Source of the DNA: a virus
Lineage: Duplodnaviria; Heunggongvirae; Uroviricota; Caudoviricetes
Reading direction: 5' to 3' (one strand)
Length of the DNA: 9,513 nt
IMG/VR virus record: IMGVR_UViG_2703718777_000005
Coordinates: 1-9,513 of that record
The position numbers and the translations under genes are program-made. Under the pieces are notes generated by a model. It ran no database searches, had not been told where the DNA came from, and saw only the letters and a list, made by a program, of their open reading frames with translations. Positions within the stretch are counted from its first letter, which is position 1, and each line of letters begins with the position of its first letter. Below, one piece after another: positions 1,064 to 4,101 of the stretch.

Positions 1064-2110
1064 TCAGTTATCCTTTAATAACCTATACAGTTTTGTAGGG
1101 GTACATCCTGAGGATATTGTTAAGTTCGTAGCACGCCTTTTCCGCCCATCATCGTATAAACGAAAACCAGTAGTAGACGAATTTTCTGCGTCAAAAACTA
1201 TAGACAGTATAGCGTCCCCAGACTTTTTTTGCCATTCGCATGTGCCGTTAGTTGGTTTCGTCATCTGTAGACGCCAGTCAAGAACGCCATCACTTATAGC
1301 TGAGAGATCGTTTAGTACATCTAGTACGGATTGATATCTTTCATTTGGATCTACATGAATGCATTTGTTCACTATTGTTATTAATTTTTTATGTATATGG
1401 GGAGGATACTCTTTTAATGGATAGCAGCCATTAATTATCGACTCTCTGAGTTGTTCAATCGTGCTAAATGCAGATCTTTCTCTTTCAAAATTATCATGTC
1501 CAACACACATTCTATATATGGTTAATCCTGCCTGATATATGTCATATGTGAAATTATAATCATTTGTTGATAAAGAAAAATATTCCGGTGGCACATGAAA
1601 ATGATATCCAAACTCAGGCGCAGCTCTCGATTCCTCATTGACTAACTGAGATAATCCAAAGTCAGATAGCATGGCCTCATTTCTGTTTGATATCATAATG
1701 TTATTAGGTTTTATATCAAAATGCATAAGACCTTTTGAGTGTATATGATAAAGTCCACTTAAAAATTGAATGGAATACCGTATTATCTCCCTGCTTGTAA
1801 GATTATTTTTTTTCATTAATTGGTTTAGCGAACCATTATGATAAAATGGCATGGCTATATAGATATTGCTCTCACATTGAGCAGCATACTGAACTTGCAC
1901 AATATTTGGATGTGCATGTTTATAGAGAAGCCTTGCTTCATTAAAGTAGTCGTCGTGGTTAGTGTTTTCTTTTTTTTCTATTTCTTTAATCACCAAGTCA
2001 TGAGCTAGGTGTCTGTCATGAGCCAGATATACTTTTGAAAAACAACCCTGTTCTTCTAGATCACTAATCCATTCGAATTCTACATCAGCTCTTTTGTATG
2101 GAGTTAGCAT
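1064..2110 (-). CDS. Hanks-type (eukaryotic-like) Ser/Thr/Tyr protein kinase with a C-terminal extension of about 90 aa of unknown function
   Basis: 348-aa ORF with the full set of kinase subdomain motifs: Gly-rich loop QGCFSKVY, beta3 lysine in LVIKEI, catalytic loop HFDIKPNN, DFG (LSDFGLS), APE-like PPEY, DIYQAGLT, and a conserved Arg in PNERYQ. GGAGG lies 7 nt upstream of the ATG. It occupies the rex-like position between cI and pL/N. Confidence 0.85.
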   Translation of the reverse strand: MLTPYKRADVEFEWISDLEEQGCFSKVYLAHDRHLAHDLVIKEIEKKENTNHDDYFNEARLLYKHAHPNIVQVQYAAQCESNIYIAMPFYHNGSLNQLMKKNNLTSREIIRYSIQFLSGLYHIHSKGLMHFDIKPNNIMISNRNEAMLSDFGLSQLVNEESRAAPEFGYHFHVPPEYFSLSTNDYNFTYDIYQAGLTIYRMCVGHDNFERERSAFSTIEQLRESIINGCYPLKEYPPHIHKKLITIVNKCIHVDPNERYQSVLDVLNDLSAISDGVLDWRLQMTKPTNGTCEWQKKSGDAILSIVFDAENSSTTGFRLYDDGRKRRATNLTISSGCTPTKLYRLLKDN

Positions 2111-2565
2111 CCCCTTACCTCCGCAGATAGTGCAGCCAAAACAGCTTCATTTGTTTCAGTTGTAAAACCAGAATTATCGATTCCATTTATATTGCGGTGT
2201 GACTTCAATATTTCTTTATACTCGATCTCTGTTAGGTTCAATGATGATTTCATGCCAGATTTTCTAATAGTGTAATATTTTCTTACATCACTGCTTGAAA
2301 ATGCTTCTTGAATAACAGCTTCTATATAAAGGCGGTCAATGCTAAGATTATCAGAGTTTGATTCAGTAACGCGTATGGCAGCTAATTCAACATTATATAA
2401 ATTAAGAATGTCGAGGATGTTATTTCTCACATACTTTAATTTTTCTGGTGTGTCTAAGGTCGAAGGTATTTTAATAACATCAACACATTTGAGTGCAGAC
2501 TCATTAGTGCAATATACAACAAAAGATGTAACTTTGGGCGCCGCTCTAACACCTAGTATTCTCAT
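2104..2565 (-). CDS. Hypothetical protein (153 aa), translationally coupled to the downstream kinase
   Basis: ORF with AGGA about 8 nt upstream of the ATG. Its TAA stop overlaps the kinase start (ATGCTAA overlap on the minus strand). No family recognised. Confidence 0.6.
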   Translation of the reverse strand: MRILGVRAAPKVTSFVVYCTNESALKCVDVIKIPSTLDTPEKLKYVRNNILDILNLYNVELAAIRVTESNSDNLSIDRLYIEAVIQEAFSSSDVRKYYTIRKSGMKSSLNLTEIEYKEILKSHRNINGIDNSGFTTETNEAVLAALSAEVRGC

Positions 2566-2616
2566 TTTTTATATCCTATTTTAGAATCAGGCCGCATCTC
2601 TGCGACCATCCATCAT

Positions 2617-2631
2617 CCAAACGTCTCTTCA
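2617..2631. repeat. 15-bp direct repeat copy B (CCAAACGTCTCTTCA), immediately 3' of the 113-aa ORF
   Basis: Exact 15-mer identical to 2988-3002; it lies 1 nt after the 113-aa ORF stop codon (2633-2635) on the coding strand. Confidence 0.7.
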
Positions 2632-2632
2632 C

Positions 2633-2974
2633 TCATCCGAAGAAGCAGCAATCCGGGTTAGCACGCACAAGCTCAAGCGCATCAGTCAGCGAAAGTTCAG
2701 TACTGTACTGATGCCATTTCATATCCTTCCGCATCCAATAGATTTTCCATCTATCCAGAGAACGTATGTACTTGATTCTTGCTGATGGCAGGATGTTTGT
2801 TTCACCTGGATTGCCCTGCCACACGGGGCGCTGTTCGCCGATATCTATCGTTTGGTCATTGATGCTATAAACAATATCCAGTTCATTGCGGATATGTTCA
2901 GGCGGCCTTATGCTTTCAATGAATTGGTGAACTTCTTTTTTTACTGCTTGATATTCAAGGTCATTGAACGCCAT
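2633..2974 (-). CDS. Hypothetical protein (113 aa), first gene downstream of cI
   Basis: ORF with a strong RBS (AAGGAGG, rc of 2980-2986) just upstream of the ATG at 2974. The gene is bracketed by two copies of a 15-bp direct repeat. No confident family assignment (Trp-rich C-terminal half WKIYWMRKDMKWHQY). Confidence 0.65.
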   Translation of the reverse strand: MAFNDLEYQAVKKEVHQFIESIRPPEHIRNELDIVYSINDQTIDIGEQRPVWQGNPGETNILPSARIKYIRSLDRWKIYWMRKDMKWHQYSTELSLTDALELVRANPDCCFFG

Positions 2975-2987
2975 CTATCCTCCTTAC

Positions 2988-3002
2988 CCAAACGTCTCTT
3001 CA
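2988..3002. repeat. 15-bp direct repeat copy A (CCAAACGTCTCTTCA), immediately 5' of the 113-aa ORF
   Basis: Exact 15-mer identical to 2617-2631; it sits between the cI stop and the 113-aa ORF RBS. Confidence 0.7.
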
Positions 3003-3034
3003 GGCCACTGGTTACCAGCTATGTGACGATGAAG

Positions 3035-3742
3035 TCACGAACTTTTCAGCCACTCCCTTGCCTCGATGTCATCCAGATGGCGAGATTGCTTCAGAATACC
3101 AGCTACATACTCCACCTTTGCTACTTGATGATAAGGCAACGTTATAGGCCTGTGATCCTGGTTAATGCTTGTAAATTGGTATTCTCCATCTCTGTCATAG
3201 CCAAGAACCTTAATCATGTTGTGTCCTTCAACGGTTCTGACAAACACCTCATCACCCGGGAATACTTTGGTGTTAGGCTCAATGAGTACATATTCTCCTG
3301 ATTTTATTCTGGGCCACATGCTGTCTCCTTTCACACGAAGACCAAAGGCATCTGGATCATCGCTATAAATTTTGAGCCACCCATCGCGCTCTTCGGTCAT
3401 CTCGATGGCACCATCAACACCAAGAATTGCCTCACCAACCACGCGCACTAACCCTTTTTTTAATTTGCCAACAAATGAAAGAGTATCTTCATCATTCGCT
3501 CCATTTAACGAAGTGCCGTGCTGAAGCCAAACAACATCAACGTTTAGAAATTTCGCAAGCGCATTCATTTTTTCCTGACGCGGTAAAGACTCAGCATTAA
3601 ACCATTTGCTAACGCCTTTGGACGAAAGAGAAAGGGCACGGGCTATAGCCATTCCCCTACCATGTTCATCAAGACCAGCTTCTTTACAGGCTTGCGCTAG
3701 CCGCTGGGCGAATTCTTTGCGCACTTTTTCATTCTGAACCAT
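3035..3742 (-). CDS. cI: CI-type prophage repressor (N-terminal HTH, C-terminal LexA/S24 autopeptidase domain)
   Basis: 235-aa ORF. The C-terminal domain carries the S24 catalytic motifs (GDSMWP serine; lysine in MIKVL). It is divergent from cro across a 78-bp operator region, and its start codon sits at the edge of that region (leaderless-like, as for lambda cI from pRM). Confidence 0.85.
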   Translation of the reverse strand: MVQNEKVRKEFAQRLAQACKEAGLDEHGRGMAIARALSLSSKGVSKWFNAESLPRQEKMNALAKFLNVDVVWLQHGTSLNGANDEDTLSFVGKLKKGLVRVVGEAILGVDGAIEMTEERDGWLKIYSDDPDAFGLRVKGDSMWPRIKSGEYVLIEPNTKVFPGDEVFVRTVEGHNMIKVLGYDRDGEYQFTSINQDHRPITLPYHQVAKVEYVAGILKQSRHLDDIEAREWLKSS

Positions 3743-3761
3743 GAGTACGATACTAAAGCAC

Positions 3762-3805
3762 TTGCAAAAACTTTCAGTTCAACCATAATACGTACTGAAA
3801 GTACG
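3762..3805 (+). promoter_or_regulatory. Candidate pR promoter with operator-like palindromes (oR)
   Basis: -35 TTGCAA (3762-3767), 16-nt spacer, -10 CATAAT (3784-3789). Perfect 6-3-6 palindrome CGTACTGAAAGTACG (3791-3805) overlaps the predicted start site; related palindrome AACTTTCAGTT (3769-3779) lies in the spacer; a further short palindrome AGTACGATACT (3744-3754) abuts the cI start. Confidence 0.45.
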
Positions 3806-4056: not shown

Positions 4057-4101
4057 GCTATTTTCACAATGGACATTCGTCCTACGTCGCTGACAAAGCG
4101 A
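4057..4101 (+). promoter_or_regulatory. nutR (boxA-like plus boxB)
   Basis: boxB TCGCTGACAAAGCGA (4087-4101) has the same UGACAAA loop as the nutL boxB, with a 4-bp stem. boxA-like CGCTATTTTCACA (4057-4069) lies 17 nt upstream. Confidence 0.55.

Follow-up and report, generated by a model that had tools for sequence, protein, structure and literature searches.

Why does an exact direct repeat of 15 nt bracket a single small gene behind the repressor of Shiga-toxin phage 933W? The stretch of DNA analysed here, 9,513 nt long and called the window below, represents the immunity region of this phage, and its positions 2050-3800 are 100% identical to 933W (AF125520 / NC_000924) and to many other Shiga-toxin (Stx) phages. 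We use R as shorthand for the 15-mer CCAAACGTCTCTTCA, which reads TGAAGAGACGTTTGG on the coding (minus) strand. Its proximal copy (2988-3002) lies on the side of the cI repressor gene, and its distal copy (2617-2631) lies past a 113-aa gene of the DUF3024 family. We found that R forms the 3' end of the coding sequence in lambda-family cI repressor genes. The two copies are probably scars of out-of-register recombination at the seams between stacked cassettes, where they double as short homology linkers, and as an outcome of mosaic evolution in phages the pair is fairly ordinary.

The repeat and the unit it brackets

R is present exactly twice in the window, with no third copy on either strand at up to two mismatches, and it is the sole exact direct repeat of at least 15 nt listed there by the repeat finder (start-to-start spacing of 371 nt). 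In a comparison within the window, the identity of the two copies ended exactly at 15 nt and their flanks were unrelated, so a longer underlying repeat was rejected. None of 200 dinucleotide-preserving shuffles reached two or more matches to R, and the number of exact 15-mer pairs of any kind expected at random in 9.5 kb is ~0.04 by our own estimate. On statistics alone the pair is unusual, not overwhelming, and it is the comparative data that settle the matter. The pair is not an assembly artefact, since it is 100% identical in 933W and in dozens of independently sequenced Stx phages; none of the public records inspected annotates it.

An initial annotation of this locus, made from the sequence alone, had described two identical 15-mers around a 371-nt unit that contains only the 113-aa gene and its ribosome-binding site, and this description was borne out. 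The unit consists of a strong Shine-Dalgarno (SD) sequence (TAAGGAGG, within 2975-2987) and the 113-aa ORF (2633-2974, minus strand), and of nothing else. As was also stated there, one copy separates cI from the gene (the proximal R lies 32 nt past the cI stop), the other directly follows the gene (the distal R begins 1 nt past its stop), and a short palindrome, CTGGTTACCAG, stands beside the proximal copy at 3008-3018. The judgement that such a pair would hardly recur by chance proved correct, given the shuffles and the homologous seams found in hundreds of phages.

The repeat is the tail of lambda-type cI

The cI gene of lambda ends in ...CAG TGG CCT GAA GAG ACG TTT GGC TGA (QWPEETFG*), and R corresponds to those final codons (T GAA GAG ACG TTT GG), which encode (P)EETFG just before the stop. 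This identity had escaped the initial annotation and became apparent on comparison with lambda cI, whose terminus can be written as ...CAGTGGCC TGAAGAGACGTTTGG C TGA. The proximal copy is identical to the lambda cI end over 23 nt (CAGTGGCC plus R). For the distal copy together with the next 23 nt, the identical sequence is found at the end of an intact cI and just past it in several of the loci compared (L120, L128-130 and L247; loci are cited by their L numbers where they have to be told apart). An exact-match scan of IMG/VR for R returned at least 120 loci with at least 124 occurrences. Among the matches listed, R ends an intact cI-like ORF, defined as having at least 150 codons and ending in ...QWPEETFG*, in 67 of 124 occurrences; in another 44 it forms a relic with only 6-43 open codons upstream, and the remaining ones are 12 unrelated contexts and one occurrence cut by a contig end.

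Both copies of R in 933W are non-coding relics of the cI tail. They are identical to the 3' end of a functional gene and are not part of a long ORF: only 16 (proximal) and 14 (distal) open codons precede them, and the rest of the cI gene is absent. The proximal relic (LHRHIAGNQWPEETFG plus TAA, 2984-3034, minus strand), which includes the palindrome at 3008-3018, follows the stop of the 933W cI gene (3035-3742, minus strand; HTH_3 and Peptidase_S24 domains) in the same frame, as ...KSS*LHRHIAGNQWPEETFG*. Its last base and TAA stop fall in the spacer GTAAGGAGGATAG (2975-2987, minus strand), which also holds the SD sequence of the 113-aa gene. The distal R, read as SEETFG*, is not in frame with DUF3024. 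A relic of the proximal kind is seen behind 933W/H-19B-type cI in many loci.

The relics range in length from 15 to ~130 nt, and they decay through substitutions, indels and nonsense changes (L003, L004, L006, L009, L054, L131 and Salmonella SE1). Examples are an 11-nt deletion in L003, a TGG>TGA change in L054, two mismatches in the proximal R of the LC616xxx/L006 group, one mismatch in each copy of SH2026Stx1, three mismatches in the copy of L131, and strongly diverged distal copies in the L009 and SE1 alleles; the distal core, however, is unexpectedly well kept in Erwinia, Izhakiella and Rouxiella. The variable lengths and the decay of the relics support their interpretation as passive scars. 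A 5'-to-3' decay gradient, as expected from repeated crossovers inside R, was sought in the distal copies, and their mismatches were found at both ends of R. The palindrome at 3008-3018 is itself a part of the cI-tail relic that is variable or deleted in relatives (GCTGATAGCCAG, GCTAGTAACCAG; part of the relic is missing in Lambda_2E9).

Two further observations concern the surroundings of the relic. The TGA of 933W cI stands in a TGA-C context and is followed in frame by 16 open codons that end in the canonical lambda cI C-terminus (2984-3037, minus strand). Programmed readthrough into the relic is unlikely because relatives carry the nonsense change (L054) or the 11-nt deletion (L003) mentioned above, and the in-frame position probably reflects chance. 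The 933W repressor already has an equivalent C-terminal strand, as judged by eye only, since BLASTP aligns just residues 131-169. The second observation is that the sequence just past lambda cI (TCGGCAAGGTGTTCTGGTCGGCGCATAGCTGATAAC; L007, 2180-2227) resembles by eye the 3' part of another cI allele (ATAGGCAAGGTAGTTAAGGCGCAGTGGCC). Pieces of this lambda sequence recur beside R in other phages (window positions 3012-3026) and bracket DUF3024 in Kluyvera (L250). Lambda itself may therefore carry an older, decayed cI-tail relic.

Copies of R at the seams of mosaic modules

Megablast comparisons among Stx and lambdoid phages placed the breakpoints of similarity at 2591, 2609, 2981/2986, 2993, 3007/3012 and 3026, all of them no more than ~26 nt from an R copy and most within 10 nt. 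In H-19B, the C-terminal half of a 933W-like cI, the relic and one R are followed by unrelated DNA. The LC616xxx Stx2a phages have cI, DUF3024 and the distal R in common with 933W and diverge beyond, and SH2026Stx1 has a different cI, yet carries the R-DUF3024-R unit. R is thus located at module borders and is common to phages that differ on one or both sides of it. At 115 immunity-type R sites we distinguished 14 upstream and 34 downstream sequence classes, which occur in 51 combinations. One proposal in the literature is that modules are exchanged by way of short conserved sequences at their flanks (PMC2327257).

A sample chosen independently of R comprised 80 loci encoding lambda cI itself (at least 98% amino acid identity). 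These loci continue into at least 17 downstream modules that diverge right after ...TTTGG; of 71 loci, only 12 have rexA as the next gene. Both the stop codon and the wobble base of the final Gly codon vary together with the module that follows, and several downstream genes begin at an ATG that overlaps the cI stop (GTGATG). In one locus, L210, the junction falls inside R (EETFS*), which shows that the position of the seam is not strictly fixed.

R copies also separate cassettes from one another. In one such case, R copies lie between two small hydrophobic ORFs (MREYLIVGVVTLLSVVAIVLMVA; MRIGIAFPVIV...), and the series ends in the same hairpin terminator that follows R in other cI operons. The resulting architecture is cI-R-(cassette-R)n-terminator. 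Small ORFs (MREYLIVGVVTLLSVVAIVLMVA, MRIGIAFPVIVFIVAVAFMAWFVVGGYATPGG) were observed in tandem downstream of cI in L062 (7551-7652), L105, L110, L119 and L124, each of them bracketed by R copies, with the TGA of an R copy as the stop codon of the first ORF. These hydrophobic products look like small membrane peptides or toxins.

Presence and absence of the DUF3024 unit

The occurrence of the second copy of R follows that of the DUF3024 gene. All 41 loci in which DUF3024 is followed by R also have a proximal R-type copy (0-2 mismatches), which lies 371 nt upstream of the distal one in 40 of them and 370 nt upstream in L147. Three contexts precede the proximal copy, namely 933W-type cI with its relic, a variant relic (CCAGAAGAAACGTTTGG) and an intact 238-aa lambda-type cI. 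Three downstream modules follow the distal copy, and nearly all upstream and downstream combinations occur with a 98%-identical DUF3024. Two of these three modules also directly follow an intact cI-R (L072/L073/L111; L120/L247), with R as the sole sequence shared on that side, which argues that the exchange occurred at R.

Loci without DUF3024 have a single R, with cI-R joined directly to the same downstream sequence. We found such junctions as intact cI-R-ATGATGGATGGTCGCAGAGATGC... in L120, L128-130 and E. coli L247, as intact cI-R-hairpin-T-run in L036, and as 933W-type relic-R-hairpin-T-run in L048. DUF3024 is likewise missing from L131 (E. coli KSC207), where another repressor is followed by a decayed R (TGATTAGACATTTGG), the hairpin, the 153-aa gene and the kinase gene stk. 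Empty sites of this kind had been proposed in the initial annotation as a check on an insertable unit, and single-R junctions free of DUF3024 do exist (L120/L247, L036/L048, L131). The precise form named there, cI followed directly by the 153-aa gene with one 15-mer, was not recovered for the exact 933W cI and its relic when 5,426 complete E. coli genomes and the phage collection were queried with three synthetic junctions; a single lambda-type cI-R-ATGATGGATGG locus was found (L247), which leads into another module. The notion of an insertable unit therefore survives insofar as R marks its borders, with two copies in the presence of DUF3024 and one in its absence, but not in the form of a site-specific attachment core or a target duplication.

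The DUF3024 gene (Pfam PF11225, E 1e-30; PHROG 3467) matches the PADLOC defence candidate PDC-S43 (E 4e-41). Its homologues occur across Enterobacterales, nearly always as the first gene past a prophage repressor or beside dinI in prophage remnants; a profile search of genome contigs returned only four loci. The spacer and SD sequence (GTAAGGAGGATAG) are kept before the DUF3024 alleles of E. coli and Salmonella SE1. The modules that follow DUF3024 include Stk, RexAB (in Dryocola, where DUF3024 is followed by rexA and rexB), a ParA-like gene (SE1), an AAA ATPase with a methylase (Yersinia), P63C and an M78 peptidase. Compared with a moron, an autonomous extra gene, the unit is an extra gene between elements that are adjacent in relatives (cI-R-hairpin in L036 and L048 versus cI-R-DUF3024-R-hairpin in L009 and L011). 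It differs from one in having no promoter-like site between cI and DUF3024, no terminator call after DUF3024 and a GC content equal to that of cI. A role of DUF3024 as a homing endonuclease or transposase was rejected, as no such fold was among the listed PDB matches of its AlphaFold2 (AF2) model.

Two loci from other genera were observed in addition. In Erwinia aphidicola (L249, 2935-5130), a prophage remnant contains a block of DUF3024, a 153-aa RuvC-like gene, a 348-aa kinase gene and a small ORF (60%, 86% and 77% amino acid identity for the three named genes). Since the three genes are kept as a block in another genus, they may function together rather than as independent cassettes. Rouxiella badensis (L260, 1852-2842) has an S24 repressor followed by a tandem pair of DUF3024 genes, the second of which is flanked by R-like copies and DUF333 fragments; this arrangement is evidence that unequal crossing-over has taken place in the repressor-proximal slot.

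The hairpin behind the distal copy

Past the distal R, 933W carries the spacer ATGATGGAT, the hairpin GGTCGCAGAGATGCGGCC (2590-2607) and a TGA, together spanning 2587-2616 on the minus strand. In relatives, the hairpin is followed by a T-run and lies a few to ~30 nt past R, whether after intact cI, after DUF3024 (L009) or after the small-ORF arrays, and it ends the cI operon in L009, L026, L036, L039, L048, L106, L110 and L252. Compensatory stem variants (GGTCGC/GCGGCC versus GGCTGC/GCAGCC) occur in L131 and L206, the former without a T-run. In 933W, the T-run is replaced by TGATTCTAAAATAGG and an AT-rich module with the RuvC-like and stk genes, and a terminator scan gave no call at the 2590-2607 hairpin. 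What remains at 2587-2616 is the fossil form of the intrinsic terminator at which the cI operons of relatives end. The lost T-run and the missing terminator call fit the cotranscription of stk with cI reported in the literature quoted in PMC3564112. The GC content steps from ~45% (cI, DUF3024) to ~33% (RuvC-like/stk module, 1064-2565) exactly at the hairpin, which marks this module as compositionally foreign.

A mini-ORF of nine codons (ATG ATG GAT GGT CGC AGA GAT GCG GCC TGA; 2587-2616, minus strand) runs from the end of the distal R through the hairpin. Short reading frames past the distal R are not conserved as peptides in the relatives compared.

A proposed recombinational history of the two copies

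We propose the following history for the 933W locus. The minimal operon (stage 0) would have consisted of a lambda-type cI, R and the hairpin terminator. An out-of-register exchange, either illegitimate or unequal, would then have placed the DUF3024 gene right behind a complete cI, with the other breakpoint ~15-20 nt inside the end of the resident cI, so that a second R came to stand before the terminator (stage 1). Later, a 933W/H-19B-type cI would have replaced the lambda-type gene and left 48 nt of the old tail, the present proximal R (stage 2). Finally, the AT-rich RuvC-like/stk module would have been joined just past the hairpin, and the proposed consequence of the removal of the T-run is that transcription from the cI promoter reads through (stage 3). 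Each downstream module would carry the tail of the cI gene to which it was once attached, and the repeats would have no enzymatic role. As every lambda-type cI ends with R, the scars would also provide short portable homology, in the form of linkers at which repressor alleles, DUF3024 and the defence-type modules downstream reassort independently between phages.

Forms corresponding to the first two stages exist in other phages: cI-R-hairpin-T-run in L036, L026, L106 and L206 (stage 0), and lambda-type cI-R-DUF3024-R-... in L011, L051 and L132 (stage 1). The identity of R, the relic status of its copies, their position at seams and the reassortment around them are direct observations; the order of events and the recombination mechanism are what we infer from them.

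Several observations weigh against this scenario. Efficient recombination through RecA or Red is quoted as needing at least ~30 bp of homology (PMC2327257), more than the 15 nt of R. In Escherichia, Salmonella, Enterobacter, Rouxiella, Erwinia and Izhakiella, R is joined to the DUF3024 stop at almost the same place. Erwinia aphidicola keeps the whole R-DUF3024-R-hairpin-153 aa-kinase order, with proteins 60-86% identical to those of 933W. Between these two, the distal core GAGACGTTYGG with the hairpin is ~80-88% conserved, in contrast to the third codon positions of the flanking genes, which are only 41-54% identical. Synonymous sites are nearly saturated where the distal core and hairpin are conserved (Erwinia, Izhakiella, Rouxiella); E. 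tasmaniensis, Izhakiella, Rouxiella and Enterobacter have retained the core as well. Lineage-specific substitutions stand in both copies alike, TTCGG in Erwinia and TGATGAGA in SE1. Other direct repeats, each significant against shuffles, bracket the DUF3024 unit in Kluyvera and Yersinia, so a single ancient event is insufficient. The 933W-type empty site (relic-R-ATGATGGATGG) was found in none of the 5,426 complete E. coli genomes versus ~190 filled sites, which means that deletion between the two R copies is at best rare. The conservation of the core and the shared substitutions hint at constraint or concerted evolution, which a passive scar does not predict. Together, these misfits point to selection on the element, to concerted evolution via exchange with local coding-constrained cI ends, or to repeated de novo duplication.

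Alternative explanations

One way to accommodate these misfits is to regard cI-R-(cassette-R)n-terminator as an integrase-free, homology-driven cassette array, with the cI-tail copies as exchange points and the core and hairpin as a selected cis element. The exchange points would serve for stacking, swapping and deleting defence genes expressed in the lysogen, and the core and hairpin would be, for instance, a leader or attenuator of the next cassette or a binding site of the DUF3024 protein. If true, a selected cis element would explain the retention of the core and the covariation in both copies across genera of Enterobacterales. We regard this extension as unlikely.

A narrower explanation, to which we give slightly less credence, is that R (or its core GAGACGTTYGG) and the following hairpin form a functional cis element selected between the cassettes of cI operons. 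It might serve for translation (re)initiation at the following gene, for the processing or stability of the RNA, or for the binding of a protein, e.g. DUF3024 itself. The conservation between 933W and Erwinia aphidicola (~88% over ~43 nt for distal R and hairpin, against 41-54% at adjacent synonymous sites), the retention of the core in E. tasmaniensis, Izhakiella, Rouxiella and Enterobacter, and the compensatory hairpin changes, present even where the T-run is absent (L131), all speak for such an element. So do the many downstream ATGs that overlap the cI stop (GTGATG), which make the cI tail the 5' leader of the downstream gene. However, the gene after the proximal R in 933W has a strong SD sequence of its own, the relic copies of close relatives carry mismatches, deletions and nonsense changes, and no R follows DUF3024 in Kluyvera, Dryocola, Yersinia and Rahnella. 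The short frames past the distal R lack peptide conservation, and the conservation of the core could stem from repeated exchange with intact, coding-constrained cI genes. Rfam covariance models gave no match at E <= 1 in the whole window. The proximal R region folds no better than shuffled sequences (z -0.89), and the score of the distal stretch (z -2.38) includes the 2590-2607 hairpin. A structured RNA element was therefore rejected, the hairpins in R and in the palindrome being weak, and the RNA processing site considered in the initial annotation received no support.

Even less probable is a mobile cassette, in which the DUF3024 unit inserts beside repressor genes and duplicates 12-24 bp, through either target-site duplication or Campbell-type integration of a circle at a core. 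This idea draws on the significant flanking direct repeats found around SD plus DUF3024 in 9 of 17 gene copies (16 loci, at least five genera), which comprise three different sequences: R, TGGTCGGCGCATRGYTGGTGA in Kluyvera and GGCTAGCCCAYAG in Yersinia. It would also accord with the correlation between the unit and two versus one R copies, and with the lineage-specific substitutions common to both copies. However, the unit encodes only the 113-aa protein, whose confident AF2 model (pLDDT 88) gave no listed PDB match with the fold of a nuclease, transposase or recombinase, and there are no inverted repeats at its ends, as would mark a transposon. The left ends of the unit vary in length and sequence (9-45 nt before the ATG), with only the SD sequence and the ORF conserved. 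Kluyvera and Yersinia have different flanking repeats, but the unit always occupies the repressor-proximal slot, with repeats of varying length (12-21 nt) and ends that are not conserved. The unit was never seen outside that slot or its remnants, other unrelated cassettes are likewise separated by R, no excision products were present in 5,426 E. coli genomes, and Rouxiella shows a plain tandem duplication in the DUF3024 region. No recombinase was found among the ORFs scanned in the interval between cI and N, and R is neither palindromic nor, at the proximal copy, part of a significant fold (z as above), as an att or attC site would require. An attachment core, an integron cassette and a target duplication were accordingly rejected, in view of the missing recombinase, terminal inverted repeats, dyad in R and conserved cassette ends; the same evidence leaves the attachment core and the duplicated target site of the initial annotation without support.

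A chance recurrence of R, devoid of history and function, has practically no probability left, despite a low yet not vanishing expectation of exact 15-mer pairs (~0.04), as it is refuted by the shuffles (0/200), by the presence of R at homologous seams in hundreds of phages and by its identity with the end of lambda cI.

Neighbouring features of the cI-N interval

The genes downstream of the distal hairpin are all on the minus strand. The 153-aa RuvC-like gene (2104-2565) is the first gene of the AT-rich module joined past the hairpin and is followed by stk (1064-2110), a protein kinase gene recognised by the PADLOC models PD-T4-6 and mad6 (PD-T4-6/mad6-like), and by a 54-aa ORF (897-1061). 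A terminator-like site at 877-898 follows the latter; it is the only one that the terminator scan detected on the minus strand downstream of cI and is probably the true end of the cI-DUF3024-RuvC-stk-orf54 operon. The N gene occupies 25-408 on the minus strand, and cro, cII and the replication genes lie to the right of cI. A 19-nt inverted repeat (95% complementary) was observed to flank the immunity region, with one arm between PL and N (575-593) and the other between cro and cII (4082-4100); their positions are those expected for nutL and nutR.

Significance and comparison with known systems

The identification of R explains an unannotated repeat in one of the best-studied Stx phages and makes the stratigraphy of its immunity region readable. 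Behind the present cI lie the tail of a displaced lambda-type gene, DUF3024, another cI tail, a terminator without its T-run, and the AT-rich RuvC-like/stk module. More broadly, many enterobacterial prophages have the last 15-24 nt of lambda-type cI at the seams between cassettes in their cI-N defence slot. The cI tail is thus a simple sequence tag for delimiting accessory and defence cassettes expressed in the lysogen. R also offers a concrete substrate for asking whether very short linkers, and not purely illegitimate events, drive the exchange of lambdoid modules. If the conserved core were functional, it would represent a new regulatory element of repressor operons.

In lambda, the cI-N slot holds rexAB. 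With the accessory slot known from lambda rexAB, BstA and Stk abortive infection, the 933W locus has in common its position and the expression of defence-type genes from the repressor promoter in the lysogen. The published descriptions consulted here do not mention copies of the cI 3' end at seams or between cassettes. The interval is described as a hotspot of mosaic diversity with lysogen-expressed accessory and abortive-infection genes (PMC8585504, which cites Degnan et al. 2007 for the mosaic hotspot; PMC3564112).

The similarity to mobile element systems is more limited. Like an integron array, the R region shows a promoter-proximal gene, a repeat, a (cassette, repeat)n series and a terminator, with independently assorting cassettes. 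This is an analogy only, since there is no integrase, dyad symmetry or attC-like structure, and exchange would proceed by general or phage homologous recombination. As in the target-site duplications of transposons and insertion sequences (IS), direct repeats immediately flank the inserted unit, but the unit has no transposase or terminal inverted repeats, the repeats measure 15-24 nt, the site is always the same, and the repeat is a gene end common to many phages.

The scars of illegitimate recombination and the morons of the Juhala/Hendrix model are closer. Here, too, an extra gene stands between elements that are adjacent in relatives (cI-R-terminator versus cI-R-DUF3024-R-terminator), a gene-fragment relic lies at the joint, and the RuvC-like/stk module has a strongly different GC content. 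Unlike a moron, DUF3024 has no promoter or terminator of its own, has the GC content of cI and uses the cI transcript. The idea of modular evolution reportedly goes back to Susskind and Botstein, and boundary sequences in HK620 are said to have been described by Clark et al. 2001; PMC2327257 alludes to such sequences with its ref. 9. As in such lambdoid boundary or linker sequences, a short sequence common to unrelated neighbours lies exactly at module borders, with free reassortment on either side. R differs from these linkers in that its origin can be identified (the last five cI codons), in that it forms non-coding duplicates between stacked cassettes, and in that its 15 nt fall short of the homology commonly regarded as efficient. 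Three points appear to be new with respect to the accessible literature, which here does not include Degnan et al. 2007 and Tyler et al. 2004: the seam is the tail of cI itself, its copies separate stacked cassettes, and 933W has two nested copies. R belongs with the lambdoid boundary or linker sequences and the gene-fragment scars, in the known cI-N hotspot.

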